Virus record (IMG/VR): IMGVR_UViG_3300033555_000001
Location: 32,001-96,000 of that record
Strand: one strand, 5' to 3'
DNA length: 64,000 nucleotides
Origin: a virus
Taxonomy: Duplodnaviria; Caudoviricetes
Shown here: positions 7,324 to 62,700 of the stretch, piece by piece
Numbering within the stretch: position 1 is the first letter of the stretch
How the letters are laid out: every line of letters starts with the position of its first letter
Position numbers and translations under genes: made by a program
The notes under the pieces: generated by a model
What the model was told of the DNA's origin: nothing
Database searches by the model: none
What the model saw: the letters and a program-made list of their open reading frames with translations, nothing else

Positions 7324-7439
7324 TTATGCTCCAGAAGAACCGGGTTGTCGTAGATCTGCTATTTAGCCTGATCCTCGGCCTGTGGTAGTAGTACGCCACA
7401 AAAGTGTTAGAATTACTAATCACTAGTAAAGAGGAAAAT

Positions 7440-8429
7440 ATGGAACACCAACAAACTGGCGAGTTAAACAACGATTTCCGCACTTGCTTGTCTCATCTAA
7501 TGGAGAATGGGCTTACTGCAAATCCTCGCGGCACTGTTACTAAAGAGTTACTAAATTACAATATTTCTTTGCTGGACGCGCGAAATCGCGTTATTACATT
7601 TCCAGATCGCAAAACTAACCTAAAATACTTGCTTGGCGAATTTGTGTGGTATCTCACTGGAGCCAATACGGTTAATGGCATATTACCTTATTCAAAATTC
7701 TGGGCCAATATTACAAACTCAGGCGATTTTGAAGAGATTGGTTATGCAGCCGGAACTATTAATTCAAACTACGGTTACCGGTTATTTGGGCACGACGAGT
7801 TTTCGGACGTTCCAGGCAAGCGCGATGAGACTGGTACAATCCAGTGGTTGAGTCAGTGGGAGGCCGTTATTGATCTTCTCAGCCGGGATAAAGACAGTCG
7901 TCAGGCAATTTTAAATATTCACCGCCCAAGCGATCGCCATCCAGGAAACTCAGATGTGCCGTGCACACTGTCTCTGCAAGTGTTGATCCGCGAGAATAAG
8001 CTGCACATGATTACCAATATGCGCAGCAACGACATTGTGCTTGGATTCACAAATGACGTGTTTCAATTTACCATGCTGCAAGAGTGTTTGATGGTTCAGC
8101 TTAAAGATGTCTACCCGGAACTAGAGCTTGGCACGTATTTCCACAACGCTGGTTCCATGCATGCTTATGACCGGCACTTTGCAATGGCTGCAGCTATTAT
8201 TGCTGATGAAAATGCAGTCGAGAAATCCATGATTCCAATGGACGAATTTAACCTGGGTGTAGTTGAGAAACTAGCATTTATTGAGCAGTTATGGGTTCAC
8301 CACGGAATGCCTGCAGCTTTTGATTTCGCTCAAGTGCCATCTTTTAACGAGCTGTCTCCTTACTGGCAAAATTTAGTTAAGTTCTGTTTTTCCTCGGATC
8401 CTGCAGCAGAACTAGCAATCTTTAAGTAA
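7440..8429 (+). CDS. Thymidylate-synthase-family dCMP-modifying enzyme (hydroxymethylase/hydroxylase)
   Basis: SRQAI, catalytic PC (DVPCT) and MRSNDIVLGFTND, with Asp at the specificity position as in T4 gp42 (MRSNDVVFGFRND). Confidence 0.8.
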   Translation: MEHQQTGELNNDFRTCLSHLMENGLTANPRGTVTKELLNYNISLLDARNRVITFPDRKTNLKYLLGEFVWYLTGANTVNGILPYSKFWANITNSGDFEEIGYAAGTINSNYGYRLFGHDEFSDVPGKRDETGTIQWLSQWEAVIDLLSRDKDSRQAILNIHRPSDRHPGNSDVPCTLSLQVLIRENKLHMITNMRSNDIVLGFTNDVFQFTMLQECLMVQLKDVYPELELGTYFHNAGSMHAYDRHFAMAAAIIADENAVEKSMIPMDEFNLGVVEKLAFIEQLWVHHGMPAAFDFAQVPSFNELSPYWQNLVKFCFSSDPAAELAIFK

Positions 8430-11765: not shown

Positions 11766-12299
11766 GTGGTTAAAAATTTAATGATTGAGGGGCTTGATCG
11801 TCTCGGTAAAGATACGCTTATTGAGGGCATTCAAAGTCTATTAGGTTACCATCAGGTACTGCATTACTCAAAGCCAATGGCTCTCAAGAAGTATCTTAAT
11901 GACCTGCAAATGTATCAACGAGTCTCGTTTACCGTGATGTTTGATTTGCTAAACAGTTATCACCGGATAATTTGTAATCGAGCGCACTTGGGCGAGTGCG
12001 TATATGCTCCTCTGTACCGAGGGTACGACGGAAACTACGTGTTTGACATTGAGGACAAGTTTGACACTAGCAATACTCGGCTAATTTTGCTGACCGAAGA
12101 TTTTAAAATTGCTCGACACTTTGTTGACGACGGCCTGTCACTTGGCGCAATTGAGAATCGCGAGCGCGAGCAAAATATGTTTATTGAGGCATTTGAAAAA
12201 TCAACCATTGAAGATAAGAGAATTATCTGTGTTACTGACGAGAAGCTGGGCGGTTTTAAACCAAAGCACAGGGTGCTTGAACTAGCGCTTGCCGCATGA
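11766..12299 (+). CDS. Thymidylate-kinase-like dNMP kinase
   Basis: IEGLDRLGKDT P-loop and NRAHLGECVYAPLYRGY (DR-like motif); AGGAG RBS. Confidence 0.7.
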   Translation: MVKNLMIEGLDRLGKDTLIEGIQSLLGYHQVLHYSKPMALKKYLNDLQMYQRVSFTVMFDLLNSYHRIICNRAHLGECVYAPLYRGYDGNYVFDIEDKFDTSNTRLILLTEDFKIARHFVDDGLSLGAIENREREQNMFIEAFEKSTIEDKRIICVTDEKLGGFKPKHRVLELALAA

Positions 12300-12934
12300 G
12301 ACTGGTCCTGACGAGTGATACTCATTCACCCGTCAGGCCAGGTGACATTCCAGATGGTGACGTATTTGTACATGCTGGCGATTTGCTGCGCACCGGTTAT
12401 GTTACTGAATGGCCCGCTGCGCTGGACTGGTTAGCCGCACTTCCTCATAAGATTAAACTGTTTGTGCCTGGCAATCATGACTTTCACCTTCAAGTCTATC
12501 CTGGCCCAGCGCTGCAGGATTTACGGCGAGCAGGTGTGGTTGTGGTTGGCTTGCCAAATAACCCTCATTATGAAACTTACTTGTTGCCTAACAAGATGTC
12601 GTTACTAGGCCTGCCGTACGTGACCGGACTTCCACGGTGGGCTTTTAACACTACGGAAGTAGAGCTCTGTGCATACCTTAAACGGGTTGGCAGGCATGAC
12701 GTAGTCATCAGTCACGCGCCGGTATATGGAATATTAGATCAGGTTAGTACTGTTAACTCCGGCATCACTGCGTACCGATCATATCTCCTTGAACACACAC
12801 CACTGTTGTGGGTGCACGGCCATATTCACGAGTGCTATGGATCTGCGCTTGTTGAGGGCTGCCAATTTTATAATGTTGCCATGTGCAACAGAAAGTATGA
12901 ACATGCTAATGCACCAGTAATTGTAGATCTCTAA
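12296..12934 (+). CDS. Calcineurin-like metallophosphoesterase
   Basis: SDTH, HAGD, GNHD, SHAP, HGHIHE motifs. Confidence 0.9.
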   Translation: MRLVLTSDTHSPVRPGDIPDGDVFVHAGDLLRTGYVTEWPAALDWLAALPHKIKLFVPGNHDFHLQVYPGPALQDLRRAGVVVVGLPNNPHYETYLLPNKMSLLGLPYVTGLPRWAFNTTEVELCAYLKRVGRHDVVISHAPVYGILDQVSTVNSGITAYRSYLLEHTPLLWVHGHIHECYGSALVEGCQFYNVAMCNRKYEHANAPVIVDL

Positions 12935-13651: not shown

Positions 13652-14803
13652 ATGAAGATTGCCGTTATTAAACTTGGTGCCAGAATTACTTGGGAAACAG
13701 ACGCAGCGGTCGGGCCGGGCGAGGCAATCTCCATCTGTAAAGCTCTTACACTGGGTGGTGCAGAAGTTCACGTGTTTACTAAGCTCCTGACAAAAGACAC
13801 GCTTGACCCAAGTTTAGTGTGGCACAACTTGCTAGATGATACCGACACTGGCGCACTTGATGCTCTACTCATAATTAACGGCAATGTTAATTTTTTTGGA
13901 GGCCAAGAAGACGAGGCGCAAATTCTAAACTACAAAATTATCAATCAGTTCGCTGGTACTGTAGTGTACGTGATGTGCGACCCCGAACTGCCGCTGTGTC
14001 AGATCTGGGACAGCGTAAGTAAAAAGCCGTGGGGCTCAAAGTACAATGAAGCCGATGTTAACATTACGCGTTTAGATATTAACGTGCTGTCACAACCCTT
14101 TTCGGTACCCAAGGTGCTGGGTCGCTGGACAAATAAAAAGGGTACTGCACCCGTTGCCCGGCTGTTTCACTTTCCAATGGAGAGATTTCCACTGTTGAAC
14201 GAGTGGTTAGATCCTAAGCCAGCACCAGAGATTGATCTGCTATATGGTGGTACTACGCGCGGTGGGCGCCGAGTTCCTAATTTGTTTAAGTGGTACTACG
14301 GCATGCCAGAGTCTATCAAAACCGAAATTTTTGGTTCTATTGATCATGATGATTTTGTAAAGCATACGAAAATTAATCAGGATTTGCTGGCAAGTACTCG
14401 TGCACCAGATTTTACTGGCATGGTGAAATACCGGCATGTGCTGCCAAAAATGAATAATTCACTGGCTCACCTGGTAACCGGCGATCCGTCCTATGAAGAA
14501 CTAGACATAATTCCACAGCGCACGTATGAGTGCATTGCTGCGGGTAACGTGGTTTTTGTTGATGCGGCAATGGACATCAGCCGGCGAATTTACCCTGCTG
14601 GCGACGAAATGGCAGAATTTTTATATGTTAACACGCGGGCTGAGCTGATTGATAGAATTACAGCATTAAAAGAAGACAGCTCTGTACGGCAGTACGTATT
14701 AGATTATCAAAAAAGTGCTACAAATTTTAACGCCGTAAATTTCTGCACATCACTAGTGCAGAAAATAAAATCACTAGAAACTTATCCCTGGTGCCGAAAA
14801 TAA
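13652..14803 (+). CDS. bgt: DNA beta-glycosyltransferase (T4 Bgt homologue)
   Basis: Colinear with T4 Bgt: MKIAVIKLG, INGNVNFFGG, CDPELP (D100), YGGTTRGGRR (R191/R195), GDPSY, QRTYE (R269/E272), YVNTRAELIDRITALK. Confidence 0.85.
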   Translation: MKIAVIKLGARITWETDAAVGPGEAISICKALTLGGAEVHVFTKLLTKDTLDPSLVWHNLLDDTDTGALDALLIINGNVNFFGGQEDEAQILNYKIINQFAGTVVYVMCDPELPLCQIWDSVSKKPWGSKYNEADVNITRLDINVLSQPFSVPKVLGRWTNKKGTAPVARLFHFPMERFPLLNEWLDPKPAPEIDLLYGGTTRGGRRVPNLFKWYYGMPESIKTEIFGSIDHDDFVKHTKINQDLLASTRAPDFTGMVKYRHVLPKMNNSLAHLVTGDPSYEELDIIPQRTYECIAAGNVVFVDAAMDISRRIYPAGDEMAEFLYVNTRAELIDRITALKEDSSVRQYVLDYQKSATNFNAVNFCTSLVQKIKSLETYPWCRK

Positions 14804-15722: not shown

Positions 15723-16388
15723 ATGCTTAAATTTGATCACCCAACGCTTGTAACCTTAACCGCCCCAACGTGTGCAGGAAAGAATTTTTTACTTGACGCT
15801 CTCGCGGAAAATTTTGGTTTTTCGAGAATCGTCAGCACCACTGATCGTGCAGCTCGCATGGGCGAGATTGAAGGCGTGCACTACAATTTTATCAGCACTG
15901 AAAAATCTCTAGCAATGGAGAGAGATAATTTGTTTGCAGAACTTGTTACGTACAACGGCACGCGGTACGGAGTGACCCATGTAGAGATGGCAAATAAAGT
16001 ACAGGCTGGTTTACCGCCGCCAATTGTAATTCTCGAGCCACAGGGGCTGCAGATTTATAAGAAGTACTGCATGCAGCAAGGTTGGCAACTCTTCAGCGCG
16101 TTTATCAATACGCCTGAAAAGATCCGGCTCAGTAGATTAGTTCAACGAACAACAGATGATATTTGTACTGCAGTAGACAGCCTAGAATCAGATATTCTGG
16201 CCGCATCTATTGCTAAAATAATTGCCGTGAACAACGCGCGGCTGACGTCAGTAATTGAGAATGAACGGATGTGGTTGCACGCAAGCGACTGGCACGCAAT
16301 TGTTTCCGGTACTGACATTAAAGAGGCACTAAACACAGTGCAATTAGGTGTTGCAAATCGTAAGCTTAAAAACGGCGTATATCAATAA
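15723..16388 (+). CDS. Guanylate-kinase-like NMP kinase
   Basis: TAPTCAGKN P-loop; VSTTDRAARMGEIEGVHYNFIS and YNGTRYG GK signature. Confidence 0.85.
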   Translation: MLKFDHPTLVTLTAPTCAGKNFLLDALAENFGFSRIVSTTDRAARMGEIEGVHYNFISTEKSLAMERDNLFAELVTYNGTRYGVTHVEMANKVQAGLPPPIVILEPQGLQIYKKYCMQQGWQLFSAFINTPEKIRLSRLVQRTTDDICTAVDSLESDILAASIAKIIAVNNARLTSVIENERMWLHASDWHAIVSGTDIKEALNTVQLGVANRKLKNGVYQ

Positions 16389-21812: not shown

Positions 21813-22268
21813 ATGCGATTTTACTGCTTTGTTAATAACGTCTATATGTCTGCCATCCAACACGGAATTCAGACCGCTCACGCCGTGTCAGAAATGAGCT
21901 TTAAAACCGCTCGTAATCCTGAAGCTCACGCAAAATATCTGATGTGGGCAGCGTGGCACAAGACGATCATTGTGTTACAAGGCGGGAATGTAGAGAATCT
22001 GCTGCGCTTAGAAAATGAAATAACTATATTGGCTAAGGAACTCGAACTGCCAGCTGTATCGTTCAGAGAAGATGAGGCGAGTCTCGGCGGAATAATTACC
22101 GCTGTGGCCGTGATACTTCCAGAAGCACTCTACGACACTGAGGTAGTGAAAGACGAAGACGGCTATACTGCCTTTAAACCACCTGTGGTTGGTGCGCAGT
22201 GGATCTCTGATTCATGGAGCCCCGAGCATAAACTGCTGTCGTTAATCAAGCTTGCTCGCCTTGCCTAG
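21813..22268 (+). CDS. Peptidyl-tRNA hydrolase 2 (Pth2)-like protein
   Basis: GIQTAHAV, HKTIIVL, FRED...LGGIITAVAV pattern of the Pth2 fold. Confidence 0.6.
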   Translation: MRFYCFVNNVYMSAIQHGIQTAHAVSEMSFKTARNPEAHAKYLMWAAWHKTIIVLQGGNVENLLRLENEITILAKELELPAVSFREDEASLGGIITAVAVILPEALYDTEVVKDEDGYTAFKPPVVGAQWISDSWSPEHKLLSLIKLARLA

Positions 22269-23017
22269 TCCAGACTCTTGACCCAGCGCTGATTAATTTT
22301 GGCGCGCTCTTCTGCGGTTATGGATAACAGCGCTTTTGCAATAATACTCGGGAGCACTGTGTTTCCCTTTAGTACTGCAAAATTGTAGGCGTAGTCGAAT
22401 CCAATCTGAGTTGCAGAGGTAGGAAGTTCAGTATTTTGGCGCAGCCACAAGTACGTGGCGTGATCCATTACTGCAGCCTCTACCGCGCCGGCGAGCATGG
22501 CGTCCATTGACAGCGAATCATTATCAAATTCAACCAGCTTTGCAAATGGCAGTTCGCTGTCAACCCAGGCTTTTACGGAGAATTTTTTTGCAATACTTAC
22601 AGATTTGGGCAGCTCCAGTACTGGGGCAGTGGTTACCAGCACGCCGCCCACTAAAGAATATGGCGGCGTAAATTCCAAGTACTCTAGCCGTTCAGCATTA
22701 ACTCTAATTGTGGTAATAAGATCTACTTTTTTGTCTTGAACGGCCACCAGTCCGGCATGAAATGTGCTGAACTCAACGGGGACTAATTTTAGCCCGGTTT
22801 TCCGCTCAATTAGTCGCACATAATCTATAGACATGCCGCGGAGTTTATCACCGTCCTTAAACATGTACGGTGCATGAGCTGTTTCTGCAACAAAAGTAAT
22901 TGTCGGATTAGCTCTTATATATTCTTTTTCAAAAAGAGTTAACCCAATATCTGGTTTAATGGGCGTACATGCTGTGAAAAACGTAGTAGTAAAAAGAAGA
23001 ATAAATTTAAGCATCAT
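22265..23017 (-). CDS. Lipoprotein with type-2 periplasmic binding (PBPb/Venus flytrap) domain
   Basis: Lipobox FTAC; EKEYIRANPTI, APY...GMSIDY, KKVDL, ERLEYLEFTPPY; TAAATA at 23040-23045. Confidence 0.8.
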   Translation of the reverse strand: MMLKFILLFTTTFFTACTPIKPDIGLTLFEKEYIRANPTITFVAETAHAPYMFKDGDKLRGMSIDYVRLIERKTGLKLVPVEFSTFHAGLVAVQDKKVDLITTIRVNAERLEYLEFTPPYSLVGGVLVTTAPVLELPKSVSIAKKFSVKAWVDSELPFAKLVEFDNDSLSMDAMLAGAVEAAVMDHATYLWLRQNTELPTSATQIGFDYAYNFAVLKGNTVLPSIIAKALLSITAEERAKINQRWVKSLD

Positions 23018-23128: not shown

Positions 23129-23755
23129 ATGACTAGCCTGGCAAAAACAAACATTGAGCGCCAAATTGCAGCGCTTGAGCAACTTAACGGTGTTATTGAA
23201 TCAGCGGTATATCAGAAAATTGTTGATGCAGTTACCTCAGTGGCGCGGCAGAATTATCGTACTCGGGTGCTCATGGCTGGTGTTGGTAAAAACGCCAATA
23301 TCGCCGCTAAAATTTCAGAGACAATGGCAAGCTTAGGTATTCCTTCTATGCCAATTAATGTGTCGCACTTAGGGCATGGCGATTTTGGCTATATTGGTCC
23401 CTACGATACAATCATTCACATTTCACGGTCAGGTACTACGCGTGAGATGCTTGTGGCAATGGAACACATTGCGCTTATTCGACCAAGTGTGCTGCAGGTA
23501 CTGATTCACTGTAAGGCCGGCAAACCCGCAAACCCACATGCCGGTCTGGAGTTGTTTATTGGCGCAGTCAAAGAGGGTGATGAGCACGGCTTGGCTCCAA
23601 CAACAAGCACCACTGCGCTGCTCTGTATTTTAGACTGCATTTCTGTAGAAGCCTCGCACAACATTAAATTTGCTAGACTGAACTTTTTAAAGTTTCACCC
23701 GGATGGCGCACTTGGCGCGTTGCTTAAGGCTGAGCAGGAGAAGACAAATGTGTGA
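23129..23755 (+). CDS. SIS-domain sugar-phosphate isomerase (arabinose-5-P isomerase KdsD/GutQ-like, no CBS domains)
   Basis: GVGKN...AAKI, HGDFG, ISRSGTT, APTTSTT, FHPDGALG. Confidence 0.85.
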   Translation: MTSLAKTNIERQIAALEQLNGVIESAVYQKIVDAVTSVARQNYRTRVLMAGVGKNANIAAKISETMASLGIPSMPINVSHLGHGDFGYIGPYDTIIHISRSGTTREMLVAMEHIALIRPSVLQVLIHCKAGKPANPHAGLELFIGAVKEGDEHGLAPTTSTTALLCILDCISVEASHNIKFARLNFLKFHPDGALGALLKAEQEKTNV

Positions 23756-24026
23756 GTGCGAAGTTTGTAAGCACGGCCGGATTTTTACTAAGAAGATTGA
23801 GGAACTGCTCCCAGAGCAGCGAGATTATTTTATCAGCCTGTACGAAGAGCTAATCGAGACTAAGTTTGATCTGGAGTATAAAACAGCCCTCATTAACGGA
23901 ACACTGTCTAATTCAGTAGCCCGGTTATCCAAGGCACTAGAGCGCGCGGAAAATAACATTCGGATTATAAAGGGCAAAGCTTCATGCGTACTTAACCGCC
24001 CTATTCCAGGCAGAGAGGAATACTAA
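23748..24026 (+). CDS. Hypothetical protein (CxCxxC)
   Basis: AGGAG RBS; lies between the isomerase and nucleotidyltransferase genes. Confidence 0.55.
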   Translation: MCECEVCKHGRIFTKKIEELLPEQRDYFISLYEELIETKFDLEYKTALINGTLSNSVARLSKALERAENNIRIIKGKASCVLNRPIPGREEY

Positions 24027-25684
24027 TGAACGTAGTAATTGTTGCAGGTGGACTTGGATCAAGACTGGCACCGCTCACAAACAACGTGCCAAAGTTCCTG
24101 GTGAATATCGGCAAACAAACTGGTTACGTTGAACAGGTCAGATACTGGCTTAAAAATTTGCCACTGTTTGATGGTGGGAACTTATCGGCCAATACACTCA
24201 ATCTTACTGTAATTGTGCACAGCGCTTATGCAGACATGGTCAGCGAGTATCACAAGATGTATTTTCCGCTCGTTGAGCTCACCATCAAAACTACTGACGC
24301 GGCTAATGGATCAGCACATGCCATTAGTACTTGCTGCGAGCACCTAACTGGAGAATCGGTCTTTTTCCAGTGGTGCGACACCATGCCAAATCAACCGTTT
24401 ACTGGTGATATGTTACGGTGGATAAGTGGAAAAGCGAATATTATCTTTACTAATTACGACCACCCAAATCGCTATGGCACTAAGCAATTAGACGAGCTTG
24501 GCCCGGTTGAGGCTGTTTTACAGCCAGACGGCCGCGGCGGAATTTTCGGCCTGTACCACATTAGCAACTTTAAACCGCTTCCATACGCAGACGGTCAAGA
24601 TTTCGTAGAAGTAATTTCTCAGTACGGTACAAGCTATGAAGTACGGCTGGACTCCATAGTTGATTGGGGCGACATGCCTAAGCTTGAGCGCACTCGCTCT
24701 ACTGCTGATTCCGCTCGAGAGTTTAATAAAGTTGAGTTCCACGGTGAGCTTGTTGTAAAGTCCTCCTTGAACGAACAGGGTGACGGCCTCATTACCAAAG
24801 AAATGAATTGGTATAAGCTATTAAATGAGTTCAATGCGCCACTGCGTGGTATCAGAATTCCTAATACGTACTTTGGATCTGATGGAAAAAGTTTTATTAT
24901 GTCCCGCGTTAAAGGTGTGCCAGTATTTGAGCTGTGGCCGAGCCTGGACTCTGAAAATCGCGCTCTTGTTCTACAGCGGTTAATTGACCAAATGAAAAAG
25001 TTACATAGTCTGCATTCGATAAATGTGTCTAAAAAAGTTATTATCGACGACATTAAGACTGAGGCTCGAAATAAACTAATTTCCAGATGGCATGAAATTC
25101 GCGGCTTTGTTGAATGTTTTGGCGCGGTGAGCAGTGTTAACGGACAGGAGCTCTCTGGCTGTGGGCGAGATTACCCAGAATATATTATTAATTCGCTGTG
25201 TGACGAGTTAATTGGATGTGACGGAAATTCTGGAGTTTATGGCGCCCTTAACTTTTATTCTATCGTGCACGGCGATCTACAGATGTCAAACACCATGATT
25301 GACCCTGACACTCTAGAAGTTTCTATCATTGATCCTCGTGGATATTTTGGAAAAACCCTAGGTTATGGTCTGCCTGATTATGACATTGCTAAGTTGCTGT
25401 ACTCCCTTAATGGATACGACCTGTTTAACTACTCTAAGACCTTTCATATTGACGTGGTTAAAACTCCTTATAACACGACAGATATTAAATTCGATATCCC
25501 TCAGCCCGCTCTGGGGGGCTGCGAAGATATAATCGCACGCACCTTTAGAAGAGAACACCATATCTGGCTTGCCATCATCTTTCTTGGTTTGGCACAGTAC
25601 ATTAAAAATGATCCAGTTAAATGTATTGCTGCACATTATCACGGGCTGAGCCTTGCAGAGAAAGTGCTGTCCAGAAAGATATAA
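24026..25684 (+). CDS. Sugar nucleotidyltransferase (NTP transferase) fused to APH/choline-kinase-like phosphotransferase
   Basis: VAGGLGSRL...PKFLV N-terminus; HGDL..SN, IIDPRGYFG and YDIAKL C-terminus. Confidence 0.85.
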   Translation: MNVVIVAGGLGSRLAPLTNNVPKFLVNIGKQTGYVEQVRYWLKNLPLFDGGNLSANTLNLTVIVHSAYADMVSEYHKMYFPLVELTIKTTDAANGSAHAISTCCEHLTGESVFFQWCDTMPNQPFTGDMLRWISGKANIIFTNYDHPNRYGTKQLDELGPVEAVLQPDGRGGIFGLYHISNFKPLPYADGQDFVEVISQYGTSYEVRLDSIVDWGDMPKLERTRSTADSAREFNKVEFHGELVVKSSLNEQGDGLITKEMNWYKLLNEFNAPLRGIRIPNTYFGSDGKSFIMSRVKGVPVFELWPSLDSENRALVLQRLIDQMKKLHSLHSINVSKKVIIDDIKTEARNKLISRWHEIRGFVECFGAVSSVNGQELSGCGRDYPEYIINSLCDELIGCDGNSGVYGALNFYSIVHGDLQMSNTMIDPDTLEVSIIDPRGYFGKTLGYGLPDYDIAKLLYSLNGYDLFNYSKTFHIDVVKTPYNTTDIKFDIPQPALGGCEDIIARTFRREHHIWLAIIFLGLAQYIKNDPVKCIAAHYHGLSLAEKVLSRKI

Positions 25685-25752: not shown

Positions 25753-26061
25753 ATGAAAACAATCTACAAGTATGTGTTACCTTTTATGGAAATTGTGCAC
25801 ATTGATTTGCCAAAGGGTGCAGAGGTTATCAGGTGCGATGGGATCGAGGGCTTCATTTATATTTGGTGCGTAATTGACACTGAAGCTCCTCTTGAAAAGC
25901 GCACGTTTTACCTGTTTAAAACTGGCGCAAAAATAGATGATAATCTGAATTTAAAATATCTGGGCTGTGGTGCGATCTTTATTCAGATGGAATTAATGAT
26001 GTACATCTTTGAATCAAAAGATCCATGGCGCCCATATTCAGCTACTTCAACGGTGTGCTAG
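25753..26061 (+). CDS. Conserved phage hypothetical protein (IYKY...LP family)
   Basis: TIYKYVLP...LPKGA...IWC...RTF...TG pattern. Confidence 0.55.
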   Translation: MKTIYKYVLPFMEIVHIDLPKGAEVIRCDGIEGFIYIWCVIDTEAPLEKRTFYLFKTGAKIDDNLNLKYLGCGAIFIQMELMMYIFESKDPWRPYSATSTVC

Positions 26062-26062
26062 C

Positions 26063-26689
26063 ATGCTAATAGGAAATGCGCCAGTAATTCTTGGACCGTA
26101 CGGTTTAGACATTACTGAGTTTCTATTCTGCCAGGACATGCCAATTTCTTTAGTTGGCAGTACTGGCGTCTCCATACCCGACAATTTAAAGTTTACAGCT
26201 CCTCTAGTAAACGCGGTCAAAGCAGACCTCCATAAAAATAATATTAAGTTAGATGGGGTCTACATTTATTTGACGGCTAAAAATACAATTGTCCCTGCAA
26301 ATCAAGAACAGGCGCGACCGGGCTGGCACACTGATGGCTTTGGCTCAGCTGATCTGAACTATATTTGGTACGATAAAATCCCAACGGTGTTTTGTGCTGG
26401 TGAGCTTGAAGTATCTGACGATCATGAACTTTCAATGTTAGAGATGGCTCAAGGCTGTGAGGGCCGAGAGCTTAAAACCTATCCCAACCATTTCTTGTTG
26501 AAGCTAGACCAAACCGTAATCCATCGCTGTGGCACTTCAGAAAAGACCGAGCAGCGCGCATTTATCAAAATTTCAGTATCCAAGAACAAATACAACTTAC
26601 AGGGTAATGCTAAAAATTACCTGCTGAACTACGACTGGGACATGCTGCCGCGAAATCAAACTCGTAACAATCCACACAAGCCAGAATAA
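26063..26689 (+). CDS. 2OG-Fe(II) oxygenase-like protein
   Basis: RPGWHTDG (HxD), distal IHR and RAFIKIS of the DSBH fold. Confidence 0.55.
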   Translation: MLIGNAPVILGPYGLDITEFLFCQDMPISLVGSTGVSIPDNLKFTAPLVNAVKADLHKNNIKLDGVYIYLTAKNTIVPANQEQARPGWHTDGFGSADLNYIWYDKIPTVFCAGELEVSDDHELSMLEMAQGCEGRELKTYPNHFLLKLDQTVIHRCGTSEKTEQRAFIKISVSKNKYNLQGNAKNYLLNYDWDMLPRNQTRNNPHKPE

Positions 26690-27407: not shown

Positions 27408-27749
27408 ATGAAAATCAAAACATCAGAATTAAAAGACGCCGCCCTTAATTATGCAGTGGCTCGGGCTTCGGGAAAGCGTCCGAGCATGTTTATATTCCAG
27501 CAGACCGGAAAATTGGCAGCGGAGCACAACTATTCAACAGACTGTGCACAGGGCGGGCCGGTCATTGATCGTGAACATATTGGCACTGATTGGTGCGGGT
27601 TTGGCGTCTGGGAGGCGTGGGACGACAAAACTATGCCGGCGCCGCGCTACACCGGCCCCACACGCTTGATCGCAGCTATGCGTTGCTACGTTGCCAGTTG
27701 TTTAGGGGGTGAAGTTGAGATCCCAGAGGAGCTTTGTAATGTTAATTAA
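27408..27749 (+). CDS. NinX/DUF2591-family protein
   Basis: LNYAVA, YSTD..QGGPVIDRE, GPTRLIAAMRCYVAS.LG.EVEIPEEL. Confidence 0.8.
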   Translation: MKIKTSELKDAALNYAVARASGKRPSMFIFQQTGKLAAEHNYSTDCAQGGPVIDREHIGTDWCGFGVWEAWDDKTMPAPRYTGPTRLIAAMRCYVASCLGGEVEIPEELCNVN

Positions 27750-28083
27750 AGTTAATACTTTGGCCGACCTTGCCCTTAACTGGGCAGTTGCGAAAGCGCT
27801 TGGGGAATACGAGCACAACCTTGAGCCAAAGCAGTTTACGAAGCTGCACGATGCTGGGGAGTTTCACTATTCAACCGACTTGTTCCAAGGTGGGTCAATC
27901 ATCGAGTGGGAACGTATTAACCCTACACCGTACACGGTCGGCAAAGATTGGTTCGCCACGCTACCGAATGCCACGGGCGGTGTATGTGTTACAGGCCCCA
28001 CCCTGCTCATTGCAGCCATGCGCTGCTTTGTGACATCGAAGTTGGGAGAGGAAATTGAAATACCCGATGAGTTGTTAAGTTAA
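27739..28083 (+). CDS. NinX/DUF2591-family protein (tandem paralogue)
   Basis: LNWAVA, YSTD..QGGSIIEWE, GPTLLIAAMRCFVTSKLGEEIEIPDEL. Confidence 0.8.
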   Translation: MLIKVNTLADLALNWAVAKALGEYEHNLEPKQFTKLHDAGEFHYSTDLFQGGSIIEWERINPTPYTVGKDWFATLPNATGGVCVTGPTLLIAAMRCFVTSKLGEEIEIPDELLS

Positions 28084-28102: not shown

Positions 28103-28204
28103 ATGGCTGAGCCAATGGATCTTGACAGATATTTTGGCACGGCCCCACCACCCTCTAAACTAGTGATTGCAGTACGGGGTTGGTTTAAAAAATTGGGAGG
28201 ATAA
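28103..28204 (+). CDS. 33-aa peptide paralogous to the C-terminus of ORF 27174
   Basis: MAEPMDLDRYFGTAPPP...; GGAG RBS; read by hand. Confidence 0.45.
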   Translation: MAEPMDLDRYFGTAPPPSKLVIAVRGWFKKLGG

Positions 28205-28205
28205 A

Positions 28206-29057
28206 TTGCCAGAAGGCCCGGAAGTTAAACGTGTTGCCACAGGACTAAACGATGTTATCACTGGTCTTACCATAACCGGTGCAGAAATTATTAGTGGTCG
28301 ATACACCCGTGTTGGTGAAGCTCTTGGGCTGTCTGCTCTAGTTGGCTGTACGGTAACTGGTGTGCGGTGCAAAGGCAAATTAATTGTATTTGATTTTATT
28401 TCCGGCGCAGGTAATAAATTTTCGGCGCTGAGCACGCTTGGCATGACCGGCTTTTGGACACCGGATTCCAGATTCAAGTACAAACGACTTGAGTTTAAGT
28501 TCAGTGATGGCAGTCAAGTCGGGTACCATGACCCTCGTAACTTTGGCACTTTTAAAATTGTTAGCACTGAACAGGCGCAGAAAAAACTCAATGAGTTGGG
28601 CCCAGACATTTTGGATGTTCAGCTCAGCAATAGAACCGAGTTACTAAAACAGTTTATTTCTCGAATAGAACGCTATGGCAAAAATCACACGCTTGCCACG
28701 GCACTACTGGACCAACGAATTGCCGCTGGTAGTGGGAACTACATCAGAGCTGATGCAATGTACCTGGCTGAGCTCTCACCACACCTGGAAGTGCACACGC
28801 TGGACCATGACCGGTTAAAGAGAGTGTGGACTGCACTTACGGAAATTGGCGAGGCGGTAGAACTAAATCGTTATCCACGCTTATTTTTACTGGGGGTAAG
28901 CAACAGGCTTGCTGAATTATCTCAGCGGGTACCGGTGTTTGACGAGTATCAGCACTTGGTTTACTACCAGCAGACATCTCCATTTGGTACTCCGGTTACT
29001 TCATACCGAGATAAAAATAAACGGACTGTTTGGTACGCTCCAGAGGAGCAGCGCTGA
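28206..29057 (+). CDS. Fpg/Nei-family DNA glycosylase/AP lyase (zincless finger)
   Basis: TTG start after GGGAGG gives (M)PEGPEV; CKGK, LGMTG, DPRNFG, LGPD, H2TH LLDQ..AGSGNYIRAD; no C-terminal Cys. Confidence 0.9.
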   Translation: MPEGPEVKRVATGLNDVITGLTITGAEIISGRYTRVGEALGLSALVGCTVTGVRCKGKLIVFDFISGAGNKFSALSTLGMTGFWTPDSRFKYKRLEFKFSDGSQVGYHDPRNFGTFKIVSTEQAQKKLNELGPDILDVQLSNRTELLKQFISRIERYGKNHTLATALLDQRIAAGSGNYIRADAMYLAELSPHLEVHTLDHDRLKRVWTALTEIGEAVELNRYPRLFLLGVSNRLAELSQRVPVFDEYQHLVYYQQTSPFGTPVTSYRDKNKRTVWYAPEEQR

Positions 29058-36822: not shown

Positions 36823-37350
36823 ATGAAAACACTCTTAGATAAAAGTAAATTCTTGTCCTTTTTGCTCAGGCATAAACCGCAGGTTGCAAAGCTCACTCTT
36901 GACCGTGAGGGCTGGTGCGCAATGTCTACAATTTCGCAGAATACTGACATCACGTTAGATGACTTACTTGAAATTACGCGGTCAGATGATAAAAAACGGT
37001 ATACTATTAAGGGCGATAAAATCCGCGCTAATCAAGGGCACAGTACGCCTCTAGTAGAACTTACTTTTGAAAAACGAGATCCTCCTGCAGTACTCTACCA
37101 CGGCACCACTCTTTCTTCCTGGAACGTTATTAAAACTGACGGCTTGAAGTCAATGAGCAGGCATATGGTGCATCTTACTGACGACCAAGAAATTGCAACT
37201 TCTGTTTCTGGGCGGCGCCGTGGAGGCCGTGTTATTGTTATTGTTGACGCAGCCGCCGCATCTGCAGCCGGATTAGAGTTCTTTGTTTCTGATAATGAGG
37301 TGTGGCTCGTAAAAGAAGTGCCGCCTCAATACATCAAAGGTGAAATTTAA
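36823..37350 (+). CDS. kptA: RNA 2'-phosphotransferase (KptA/Tpt1)
   Basis: SKFLSFLLRH, KKRY, IRANQGHS, LYHGT, MSRHMVHL, NEVWL. Confidence 0.93.
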   Translation: MKTLLDKSKFLSFLLRHKPQVAKLTLDREGWCAMSTISQNTDITLDDLLEITRSDDKKRYTIKGDKIRANQGHSTPLVELTFEKRDPPAVLYHGTTLSSWNVIKTDGLKSMSRHMVHLTDDQEIATSVSGRRRGGRVIVIVDAAAASAAGLEFFVSDNEVWLVKEVPPQYIKGEI

Positions 37351-38348
37351 TGGACCAGGCACTTGAGTATCTAATACCCGCGGTGGTGGTTTTTATAGTA
37401 ATGGGATCTTTGTTGTGGATAGACATTAAACTAATGTTTACTGCGTACAAAGAAACAGGTTGGGAAACTGATTTACAGGAACTGTACGGTAAAATCCTGG
37501 CCAATGGTGAGCTGCGGGCAGATCGCACTGGAACTGGTACTATTGCACTGTTTGGCGAGCGATTAGTAATTGATTTGCGACACGGCTTTCCGGCAGTGAC
37601 AACGAAAAAATTAGCGTTTAAGTCAATGGTGGCAGAGCTCCTGTGGTTTATTGAGGGCTCGGGAGATGAGCGCCGGCTGGCTGAAATTCAGTTTGGAACC
37701 AGAGATGAGGCCAAGCGAACAATTTGGTCCGACAACGCCAATGCCGAGTACTGGAAGTCGCGCGCAAAATTTAAGGGTGATCTTGGCCGGATATACGGCG
37801 TGCAGTGGAGACACTGGGCAACATACACCAGTTATGACACACTGTATCACCCACCGCTTTTTGTTGTTGGCGAGATTGATCAGCTTAAAGAATTGATCAA
37901 TAAACTAAAAACAAATCCTACTGATCGGCGCCTGATTTTGTCCGCTTGGAATGCTGGCGAGCTTGACAGCATGGCGCTGCCGCCCTGCCATATGTTTGCA
38001 CAATTTTACCTGAGCAATGATAACGAACTGTCATGCCAAATGTATCAGAGATCAGCGGACGTTGCACTCGGGATCCCTTTTAATATTGCCTCTTACGCGC
38101 TCTTAACACACATGATTGCCCATGTTATAGCAGCAGACGTTGGAACCCTTACCATGGTGTTGGGTGATGCGCATCTTTATTTGGATCATATTGAAGGAGT
38201 AAAGAAACAGCTTTCTAAAAAACTTTATGCGCCACCAATTTTAAATATTATTCGAAAAGTGGGTAATATTGACGATTTTAAAATGAGTGATTTTGAATTA
38301 TTGAACTATCAACATCATGCAGCAGTTGCTCTAAAAATGTCAATATAA
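37350..38348 (+). CDS. thyA: Thymidylate synthase
   Basis: DRTGTGT, TTKKL, ELLWF, ALPPCH, QRSAD, GIPFNIASY (Asn, dUMP-specific); start uncertain. Confidence 0.95.
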   Translation: MDQALEYLIPAVVVFIVMGSLLWIDIKLMFTAYKETGWETDLQELYGKILANGELRADRTGTGTIALFGERLVIDLRHGFPAVTTKKLAFKSMVAELLWFIEGSGDERRLAEIQFGTRDEAKRTIWSDNANAEYWKSRAKFKGDLGRIYGVQWRHWATYTSYDTLYHPPLFVVGEIDQLKELINKLKTNPTDRRLILSAWNAGELDSMALPPCHMFAQFYLSNDNELSCQMYQRSADVALGIPFNIASYALLTHMIAHVIAADVGTLTMVLGDAHLYLDHIEGVKKQLSKKLYAPPILNIIRKVGNIDDFKMSDFELLNYQHHAAVALKMSI

Positions 38349-61544: not shown

Positions 61545-61593
61545 CACAGTACCACCAAAAATAAAATAAGGCTCTTTGAGCAGAAAAGAAATC

Positions 61594-62700
61594 ATGCACA
61601 CGCTTATCGTACTGTGTCACCTGCGCTGGGATTTTGTTTGCCAGCGCCCGCAGCACTTGCTCACACGACTGTCACAGTTCTACAATGTAGTTGTAATAGA
61701 AGAGCCGGTTTTTAACGATAAATCAGAGAGCGCTGTTGATTTTTTAAAGATCATGCGGCCCGCTGACAACATCACAGTGTACCAGCCGCATACGTCAGTA
61801 AGCGAATTTGGTTTTCATGACGAGCAACTCGCGGCAATGCGGCCACTGCTGCAGAATCTAATAGCTGATGGCAGCCCGCAGGTTGTATGGTTTTACACCC
61901 CAATGGCGCTGCCATTGTTGGACTGCTTTAACGCTGAAGCAATTGTATACGATTGCATGGACGAGCTCAGCGCGTTTAATAACCCACCACCGCAATTGCT
62001 GGAGCGTGAGGCTGTCCTGTTAAAAATCGCAGATTTAGTCTTTACTGGTGGGCCAAGCTTGTACAAAGCCAAACGCGACCGCGCTAAAAGCGTGCACTGC
62101 TTTTCAAGTAGTGTTGATGTTGCGCACTTTAAGCGAGCACTAAATCGCTCGGAACCGCATGAAGCGCTTGCAAATATTCCTGGCCCACGCCTTGGATTTT
62201 ACGGCGTAATTGATGAACGGTTTGACCTTGAACTAATAAAAACTCTTGCTGATCTAAAACCAGACTGGCAAATAATTCTAATAGGCCCAGTGGTAAAAAT
62301 AGATCCGGTAACTCTGCCACAACGCGCTAATATTCACTATTTGGGCCAGCGCACTTACGACGAGTTACCACTGTTACTTGCGGGCTGGGATGTGTGCCTG
62401 CTGCCGTTTGCACTTAACGCGGCAACAAAATTTATTAGCCCAACAAAAGTGCTTGAGTACATGGCTGCTGAACTGCCAATTGTGAGCACCAAAATTACAG
62501 ACGTTTATGAACCATACGGCCACGTGGTGCAGATTGCGGATGACGCTATTAGCTTTGTGGAATGCTGCCACCGCGCGCTAGACATGACAGTACCTGAAAA
62601 AAGAGAAATGGTTGCAAAGATGAGGATAGTGTTGTCACGCACTTCATGGGATAAGACCTCAAAGGAAATGCAAGTTCTGATAGAAGCCAGTTTAGCTTAA
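61594..62700 (+). CDS. GT-B glycosyltransferase (GT4-like, bacterial type)
   Basis: HLRWDFVCQRPQHL, VYDCMDELSAF, ADLVFTGG, GFYGVIDERFD, SPTKVLEYMAAELPIVST. Confidence 0.9.
   Translation: MHTLIVLCHLRWDFVCQRPQHLLTRLSQFYNVVVIEEPVFNDKSESAVDFLKIMRPADNITVYQPHTSVSEFGFHDEQLAAMRPLLQNLIADGSPQVVWFYTPMALPLLDCFNAEAIVYDCMDELSAFNNPPPQLLEREAVLLKIADLVFTGGPSLYKAKRDRAKSVHCFSSSVDVAHFKRALNRSEPHEALANIPGPRLGFYGVIDERFDLELIKTLADLKPDWQIILIGPVVKIDPVTLPQRANIHYLGQRTYDELPLLLAGWDVCLLPFALNAATKFISPTKVLEYMAAELPIVSTKITDVYEPYGHVVQIADDAISFVECCHRALDMTVPEKREMVAKMRIVLSRTSWDKTSKEMQVLIEASLA

Follow-up and report, generated by a model that had tools for sequence, protein, structure and literature searches.

Which activated sugar does an uncultured jumbo phage make with genes of its own, and to what would that sugar be attached? 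The question is raised by three tightly packed plus-strand genes at 23129-25684 of the window, the 64,000-nucleotide stretch of DNA analysed here, spanning bases 32001-96000 of an IMG/VR viral record that is 310,728 bp long and estimated to be 87% complete. The source genome is that of an uncultured T4-related jumbo phage. Open reading frame 1 (ORF1; 23129-23755, + strand, 208 aa) encodes a predicted single-domain, CBS-less SIS arabinose-5-phosphate isomerase (API) that would interconvert ribulose-5-phosphate and arabinose-5-phosphate. ORF2 (23748-24026, + strand) encodes a 92-aa orphan with an N-terminal CxCxxCxH motif, and ORF3 (24026-25684, + strand, 552 aa) a nucleotidyltransferase/kinase fusion of the AfhE family, to which RB69 gp52:53 belongs. 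The product of the operon is most likely a nucleoside diphosphate (NDP)-pentose for DNA modification. Within a pathway for cytosine hypermodification, the cassette probably forms the arm that supplies the sugar donor; this donor would be used on 5-hydroxymethylcytosine (hmC), and a phosphatase would act in trans.

Relation to the published phage pathway

A phage UDP-arabinofuranose pathway has been published for RB69, DLP3 and HY126 (PMC13326640, NAR 2026). Its isomerase turns ribulose-5-phosphate into arabinose-5-phosphate (PMC13326640). According to the same source, the kinase domain of AfhE then yields arabinose-1,5-bisphosphate and the HAD phosphatase AfhF strips the 5-phosphate; only afterwards does the N-terminal domain of AfhE form UDP-arabinofuranose, with which DNA arabinosyltransferases modify 5-hydroxycytosine (5hoC) (PMC13326640). 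The activities of the HY126 enzymes are reported as experimentally demonstrated (PMC13326640). The genes are named gp55, gp52:53 and gp51 in RB69, gp83, gp82 and gp81 in DLP3, and AfhE and AfhF in HY126, and Bas46 is among the phages reported with arabinosylated 5hoC (PMC13326640). Arabinose on hydroxymethylcytosine had once been claimed for RB69, but the claim was later withdrawn and is considered erroneous. In every phage with a determined adduct, this cassette serves DNA arabinosylation.

The cassette of the window is thus not new in itself, being the published enzyme pair (PMC13326640). Like the Straboviridae loci, it has a CBS-less API followed by a bifunctional nucleotidyltransferase/kinase in the same order, with full-length homology (45% and 32% identity to the Bas46 proteins, respectively), a slot for a small ORF between the two enzymes and a position in a DNA-metabolism region. 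It differs from the published system in the missing phosphatase, in the association with hydroxymethylcytosine chemistry and a T4-type transferase, and in its occurrence in a large environmental jumbo-phage clade. Specifically, the phage of the window has neither an AfhF phosphatase nor an RB69 gp50-type U32 protein, its ThyA paralogue carries D169 (hydroxymethylase) instead of N169 (5-hydroxy), its conserved transferase is a homologue of the T4 beta-glucosyltransferase (beta-GT), and its genome measures 311 kb compared with ~170 kb in the T-even relatives.

Gene layout and conservation

The three genes were found as a plus-strand operon with overlapping junctions, as had been stated in the original prediction. 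A GGAG motif is located 7 nt 5' of the ORF1 ATG at 23129. The frame first listed for ORF2 (23703-24026, 107 aa) has a better start at the internal ATG 23748, because AGGAG precedes this ATG by 8 nt and the ATG overlaps the isomerase stop (ATGTGTGA); the resulting 92-aa protein (MCECEVCKH...) equals in length its entry in a public collection. The ORF2 stop and the ORF3 start overlap as TAATG. With these overlapping starts and stops and ribosome-binding motifs, the cassette genes are translationally coupled. No sigma-70-type promoter or terminator was called within the cassette or in the 111-nt upstream spacer.

The isomerase and AfhE-like genes are conserved and adjacent in all 12 loci of the window's clade. 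This clade extends to more than 120 protein clusters in metagenomes, many of them on contigs of 270-380 kb. Genes for nucleotide kinases, the hydroxymethylase, topoisomerase II and an Fpg-like glycosylase surround the cassette, with the beta-GT gene at a distance of 8 kb and the hydroxymethylase gene at 15 kb. In two relatives without the tail-fibre insert of the window (L005, L022), the cassette immediately follows the nucleotide-kinase genes of the modification region.

The isomerase

ORF1 matched phrog_5670 ("arabinose 5-phosphate isomerase") at 2e-65. Of the NCBIfam models, KdsD NF008141 was matched at 6e-23 over profile positions 25-202 of 328, that is, over the SIS part only, and TIGR00393 at 2e-22; all KdsD/KpsF/GutQ models matched the SIS half only. 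Lacking the CBS half, the protein scored under the curated cut-offs for full-length members: the tandem C-terminal CBS domains of E. coli KdsD and GutQ are absent from its 208 residues. This does not exclude API membership, since CBS-less APIs are a known form. The nearest PDB structures (5uqi, 3etn and 2xhz) are all APIs, and two of them, 5uqi and 3etn, are CBS-less as well. In alignments to 5uqi, 3etn and the Bas46 isomerase, the motifs GVGK, HGDxG, SxSGxTxE, GLAPTxSTT and HPxGALG were conserved. Identity was 45% to the isomerase of the arabinosylating phage Bas46 and 63-71% to most clade relatives, falling to 47-55% where a GIY-YIG endonuclease ORF is fused. ORF1 is therefore classified as a KdsD/KpsF-type CBS-less API with predicted activity, which bears out the KdsD-like, CBS-less isomerase first proposed for it.

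The nucleotidyltransferase/kinase fusion

ORF3 carries the Pfam domains PF00483 (NTP_transferase, residues 3-157) and PF01636 (APH) and matched phrog_4098 end to end (6e-102, residues 2-550), so that the fusion of a nucleotidyltransferase with a kinase, as originally proposed, was recovered. The family is that of RB69 ORF052/053c of T4-like phages. The Bas46 homologue is colinear, with 32% identity over residues 3-548 (E 3e-70). The N-terminal domain (~residues 1-228; 24026-24709, + strand) is a putative sugar-1-phosphate nucleotidylyltransferase, predicted to convert arabinose-1-phosphate and an NTP to NDP-arabinofuranose. Its profile matches were HddC, LicC and RmlA. The C-terminal domain (~residues 229-552; 24710-25684, + strand) is a putative APH/choline-kinase-type sugar kinase, predicted to form arabinose-1,5-bisphosphate from arabinose-5-phosphate and ATP. 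It gave weak profile matches to the APH structures 3ham and 3uzr, which are also the structures named for RB69 gp52:53 (PMC13326640).

Among 20 homologues, GGLGSRLAPLT...K23 and WCD118 of the N-terminal domain and H415-G-D417...N422 and I-D436-P-R-G of the kinase domain are invariant; the invariant columns include G9, R13, K23, D118, H415, D417, N422 and D436. GGxGxRL...K corresponds to the nucleotide-binding motif, HGDxxxxN to the kinase loop and IDPRG to the metal-binding motif. An AlphaFold (AF2) model built with these 20 homologues reached a pLDDT of 89 and a pTM of 0.87, and its N-terminal domain superposed on RmlA, UDP-glucose pyrophosphorylase, LicC and MurU (4y7u). No extra domain was present, and lengths equal those of the phosphatase-linked relatives. 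Neither the isomerase nor the AfhE-like gene is truncated or disrupted at any of the 12 clade loci; although identity is only 47-56%, dozens of residues are invariant, those of all catalytic motifs among them. The domain assignments of the two enzymes exceed chance expectation by a wide margin. By homology, architecture and intact motifs, ORF3 is classified as an AfhE-type bifunctional fusion, with kinase and pyrophosphorylase activities predicted from those cited for HY126 AfhE in PMC13326640.

In loci of giant-virus metagenome-assembled genomes (GVMAGs; L053, L055, L058, L063, L064, L074 and others), the AfhE-like proteins measure ~890 aa; they are ~340 aa longer than the phage enzymes and share ~27% identity with them.

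The missing phosphatase

AfhF belongs to phrog_1238. This profile had no match in the genome of the window, and its control rang in E. coli and other control genomes. Direct protein search of the window's genome found no AfhF either, and a separate hidden Markov model built from 28 AfhF sequences, run with all filters off, gave a best E of 1.1 there. A second HAD family (Hydrolase_3-like) abuts the AfhE-like gene in L024, L041, L067, L070, L078-L080, L083, L084 and phage PAU; an iterated profile (jackhmmer) of this family detected no member in the window's genome. HAD_2 (PF13419) and PNK3P (PF08645) profiles had no match in six clade genomes. The absence is not explained by an assembly gap, because phrog_1238 is also missing from the near-complete relatives G002 (98% complete), G004 (94%) and G006 (100%, terminal repeats).

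No HAD gene was found within up to 10 kb on each side in any of the 12 loci of the window's clade. A phosphatase gene abuts AfhE in nearly all other lineages, and in Straboviridae AfhF lies within ~120 nt of AfhE in essentially every locus. A quick maximum-likelihood tree calculated for the AfhE-like proteins grouped the loci without a phosphatase in one clade (SH-aLRT 99), and its successive sisters L024 and L041 keep the phosphatase. With the tree root uncertain, the simplest reading would be a single loss of the phosphatase in this clade.

Several candidates for a replacement were rejected. A gene that tracks the cassette (21813-22268) is unlikely to encode the phosphatase, having a peptidyl-tRNA-hydrolase (PTH2) fold and no phosphatase features. 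The metallophosphoesterase at 12296-12934 was dismissed as a clade-wide phosphatase, since relatives have no counterpart beside the beta-GT gene. The longer isomerase ORFs of L017, L020 and L022 are not isomerase-phosphatase fusions; their extra part is a SegE-like GIY-YIG/NUMOD3 homing endonuclease. Two other metallophosphoesterase types, both uncharacterised, are conserved in the clade elsewhere in the genome (near G000 254876 and 298882) and would be the next candidates to consider.

Dephosphorylation would then take place in trans, the enzyme being either a GmhB-type heptose-bisphosphate phosphatase of the host or a phage phosphatase not yet recognised. The nearest cellular relatives of AfhF are GmhB-type phosphatases (PMC13326640). 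By analogy, a host enzyme of this type would be the most economical source, because the Afh pathway mirrors the bacterial ADP-heptose pathway step for step. The latter pathway employs the SIS isomerase GmhA, the bifunctional kinase/nucleotidyltransferase HldE and the HAD phosphatase GmhB; the sugar 1,7-bisphosphate on which GmhB and comparable host HAD phosphatases act is a close analogue. The two pathways share a SIS isomerase, a bifunctional enzyme for C1 phosphorylation and nucleotidylation, and a HAD enzyme that removes the distal phosphate in between. They differ in that the domains of HldE have other folds (ribokinase, cytidylyltransferase), the substrate is a heptose, and the product serves lipopolysaccharide instead of DNA. 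A further parallel is found in AmgK/MurU pairs: the N-terminal domain of ORF3 superposes on MurU, and its C-terminal domain is likewise an APH-type sugar kinase. AmgK and MurU, in contrast, are separate proteins that act on N-acetylmuramic acid and N-acetylglucosamine in cell-wall recycling.

The predicted acceptor base

Two ThyA-family genes are present in the genome, both within the window. The one at 37350-38348 encodes a canonical thymidylate synthase (QRSADVALGIPFN). Its paralogue at 7404-8429 (+ strand) has a T4 gp42-type dCMP hydroxymethylase signature and is a predicted 5-hydroxymethyl-dCMP synthase: the motif SD-VPC...MRSNDIVLGFTND (MRSND) gives D143, D169 and D177. Diagnostic residues are L143D/E, D169 and N177D for the gp42 type and D169N for the 5-hydroxycytosine type (PMC13326640). 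The motif nearly equals that of T4-type dCMP hydroxymethylase (MRSNDVVFGFRND) and differs from that of the Bas46 5-hydroxy-dCMP synthase (MRSQNCAVVMQLD). Top PDB matches of the paralogue were MilA (1.4e-25) and T4 dCMP hydroxymethylase (gp42; 2e-17), ahead of thymidylate synthases. The hmC-type motif with D169 was also found in five clade relatives. In the control set, N169 was seen at every one of the 27 Straboviridae loci whose paralogue near the cassette could be classified.

Because the ThyA paralogue carries the T4 hydroxymethylase signature, the predicted acceptor base is most likely hmC in phage DNA. Both chemistries are represented among large phages: G007/L024, a jumbo relative at greater distance whose AfhE shares 41% identity, combines N169 with a HAD gene. 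The layout of this locus (L024; IMGVR_UViG_3300028874_000010, 112 kb) resembles that of RB69, in that a HAD gene (PF08282) abuts the AfhE-like gene and precedes a ThyA paralogue bearing the 5hoC signature MRSNN.

Candidate sugar transferases

The candidate first-sugar transferase is the T4 beta-GT homologue at 13652-14803 (+ strand), which matched PF09198 over its full length (2e-22) and phrog_7922 (3e-50). It is 28% identical to T4 b-gt, and its clade orthologues are 62-68% identical. All clade records that are at least 43% complete (G001, G002, G003, G004 and G006) encode it, and it is the only Pfam-recognisable glycosyltransferase common to them. A search for its close relatives returned only the same records; in the broader family, a beta-GT is found without the cassette in T4 and in the Ralstonia jumbo phage RsoM2USA. 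The combination of the gp42 signature D143/D169/D177 with a full-length beta-GT homologue (PF09198) is that of the T4 glucosyl-hmC system. T4, however, draws on host UDP-glucose and has no sugar-activation genes, whereas the phage of the window adds a pentose-activation cassette of its own.

An accessory GT-B (group 1) glycosyltransferase at 61576-62700 (+ strand; PF13692 8e-9) is a possible second-sugar transferase. Five clade genomes gave no match to it and RB69-type phages no relative, and on these grounds it was rejected as an RB69-type arabinosyltransferase. Accessory glycosyltransferases vary between the clade genomes. phrog_3891, the family of the RB69 gp46:47-type arabinosyltransferase, was unmatched in the genome in a search that, like the one with PF11440, had no positive control (the phrog_3891 control rang nowhere). 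Both the beta-GT homologue and the accessory enzyme, then placed at 61594, had been put forward as users of the sugar; the former is conserved in the clade together with the cassette, and the latter is lacking in five relatives. The beta-GT homologue could attach arabinose as the first sugar, or an accessory glycosyltransferase could add it as a second.

RsoM2USA (L117, L120; MG752970.1) is a cultured phage with a genome of 344 kb and would serve well for comparison in the laboratory. Its beta-GT is 40% identical to that of the window, and an hmC-type ThyA paralogue (KDVPC...MRSQDGIFGMGND) is encoded within 6 kb of it. In Maribacter phage Molly_1 (L014, record positions 69968-74727), genes for a UDP-glucose dehydrogenase, an NAD-dependent epimerase/dehydratase, a beta-GT homologue and a ThyA homologue stand in a row. 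Such a cluster would supply base modification with a pentose donor by another, UDP-xylose-like route.

Proposed pathway and alternatives

In the favoured reading, ORF1 would divert host ribulose-5-phosphate to D-arabinose-5-phosphate, and the C-terminal kinase domain of ORF3 would phosphorylate C1 to give arabinose-1,5-bisphosphate. After removal of the 5-phosphate in trans, by the host GmhB-type or the unrecognised phage phosphatase, the N-terminal domain of ORF3 would join arabinose-1-phosphate to a nucleotide (probably UMP from UTP), yielding NDP-arabinofuranose. Transfer to hmC would be catalysed by the conserved T4 beta-GT homologue and/or an accessory glycosyltransferase. ORF2 is an unrelated small gene inserted between the two enzymes. 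Of the earlier scheme, in which the kinase makes a sugar-1-phosphate and the transferase an NDP-pentose, the NDP-pentose outline stands and matches the RB69/DLP3/HY126 pathway (PMC13326640); the bisphosphate and phosphatase step had been omitted from it.

Four points weigh against this reading. No AfhF-family or other HAD phosphatase was found in the window's genome or in the near-complete G002, G004 and G006, and one step of the published pathway is for this reason without an assigned enzyme. With identity to the Straboviridae enzymes at only 32%, ORF3 could differ from them in sugar and nucleotide specificity. In RsoM2USA, a member of the beta-GT subfamily occurs with an hmC-type paralogue but with no AfhE-like gene; the beta-GT thus does not require the cassette and may use host UDP-glucose. 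Finally, AfhE-like genes also occur in giant-virus metagenome-assembled genomes, where DNA glycosylation is not established.

The first two of these points would fit an altered chemistry. With the phosphatase lost, no arabinose-1-phosphate would be formed; the clade might make an NDP-arabinose-5-phosphate from the bisphosphate, or activate another sugar phosphate, and the DNA adduct would not be plain arabinose. The contrast between the 12 clade loci and the AfhE-abutting HAD genes of nearly all other lineages, the placement of the loss on a single branch whose sisters L024 and L041 retain the enzyme, and the lack of HAD matches in six clade genomes are consistent with this explanation, as is the distance of ORF3 from the characterised type. 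It is nevertheless judged unlikely. Conservation between the isomerase and the APIs of arabinosylating phages is strong, and ORF3 has no extra domain and matches its phosphatase-linked relatives in length. Host enzymes such as GmhB act on an analogous bisphosphate, phrog_1238 has a match in E. coli, and the literature consulted gave no precedent for a phospho-sugar nucleotide donor in DNA modification. The other two points would suit a use outside DNA, in which the NDP-sugar feeds the glycosylation of virion proteins or of a surface glycan of the host, and the beta-GT homologue acts as in T4, placing glucose from host UDP-glucose on hmC. The 8 and 15 kb that separate the cassette from the beta-GT and hydroxymethylase genes, and the variable accessory glycosyltransferases of each clade genome, agree with such a role. 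It too seems improbable: wherever a phage adduct has been determined the cassette serves DNA arabinosylation, in L005 and L022 it directly follows the kinase genes of the modification region, and its genes lie on the early-type plus strand amid DNA-metabolism genes.

The missing phosphatase and the foreign genes inserted at the junction might also mark a decaying remnant that has been non-functional since the phosphatase was lost. This is very hard to reconcile with two genes that are intact and full length in all 12 clade loci with every catalytic motif invariant at 47-56% identity, with the more than 120 clade protein clusters in metagenomes, and with the retained translational coupling, and it is given very little credence.

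The reading of the cassette as a donor arm for hmC can be extended to the clade as a whole. It is conceivable, at somewhat less than an even chance, that a widespread clade of uncultured jumbo phages of ~310-340 kb puts arabinose on hmC by a phosphatase-less UDP-arabinose pathway that relies either on a host heptose-bisphosphate phosphatase or on a phospho-arabinose nucleotide donor. Sugar-modified cytosines govern the exposure of phages to restriction enzymes, CRISPR nucleases and glycosylase defences, and the arabinosylated bases confirmed to date are all on 5hoC in T4-like phages of ~170 kb. The locus suggests that, in a large jumbo-phage clade of the environment, this donor pathway and hydroxymethylcytosine chemistry of the T4 type have been brought together by recombination. 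If true, this would add a new hypermodified base, arabinosyl-hydroxymethylcytosine, so far unconfirmed in any virus, and would make the locus a natural experiment on whether the pathway phosphatase is dispensable or host-supplied. Nothing categorically new is involved, and both the predicted base and the missing phosphatase are directly testable.

ORF2 and the isomerase/AfhE junction

Among 5.8 billion protein clusters, ORF2 matched only itself. A single weak match was obtained in Xanthomonas phage Xoo-sp13, in an unrelated context, and phrog_11280 was matched at 7e-7. The AF2 model is a low-confidence helical hairpin (pLDDT 57) and had no usable match in a structure-atlas search.

In relatives, the corresponding junction is variably occupied. 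In L005, L006, L016 and L018 the isomerase and AfhE-like genes overlap with nothing between them and ORF2 is absent. The junction holds a SegE-like GIY-YIG/NUMOD3 homing endonuclease in L017, L020 and L022, two other small ORFs (one of zinc-ribbon type) in L007, five unrelated ORFs in L024 and a small 47-aa ORF in Bas46. ORF2 has no similarity to the Bas46 ORF or to the inserts of L007, L017 and L024; as an orphan, it was rejected as a conserved pathway component, and for want of similarity also as a remnant of the junction endonuclease. The CxCxxC ORF, formerly counted as a member of the sugar-synthesis cassette, is accordingly an orphan in a variable slot that is empty or filled otherwise in relatives. 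From these comparisons the junction is an insertion hot-spot, with ORF2 as its lineage-specific occupant and not a pathway component.

In L017 (8590-9795), L020 (451-1608) and L022 (5600-6802), the isomerase forms part of one ~400-aa ORF by in-frame fusion to the homing endonuclease. Further GIY-YIG genes were found on the opposite strand just after the AfhE-like gene in L005, L006 and L017. The cassette appears to be a target of homing endonucleases.

Neighbouring genes

Two nucleotide-kinase genes were identified upstream on the plus strand: a thymidylate-kinase-like gene of the modification neighbourhood at 11766-12299 (phrog_761 1.4e-8, weak PF02223) and a guanylate-kinase-like gene at 15723-16388 (PF00625 3e-13, phrog_1815 4e-26). 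A guanylate-kinase-like gene also stands upstream of the isomerase in L005, L017, L022 and L023. Upstream of the isomerase, and divergent from it, lies a gene (22265-23017, - strand) for a SBP_bac_3 solute-binding protein that stands alone and whose N-terminus (...FFTAC) is lipoprotein-like. Relatives have a DUF4262 gene and a NUDIX hydrolase gene on the plus strand at this position, and the SBP_bac_3 gene looks like a recent moron insertion.

Just 3' of the cassette, a 226-aa ORF (26009-26689) belongs to phrog_1843 and has no Pfam match. Its RPGWHTDGF motif is reminiscent of metal-binding HxD oxygenases, and it shows no synteny with the cassette in relatives. Two adjacent, overlapping genes at 27408-27749 and 27709-28083 encode paralogous proteins of ~115 aa with the common C-terminus ...TGPT(R/L)LIAAMRC(Y/F)VAS...GEE(V/I)EIP(E/D)EL. 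They are followed by an Fpg/Nei-family DNA glycosylase gene (28167-29057), the real start of which is the TTG at 28206, with GGGAGG 5 nt ahead. From this start the protein has the canonical M-PEGPEV N-terminus with catalytic Pro2/Glu3 intact, and the gene is kept 3' of the cassette in L017, L018, L019 and L021.

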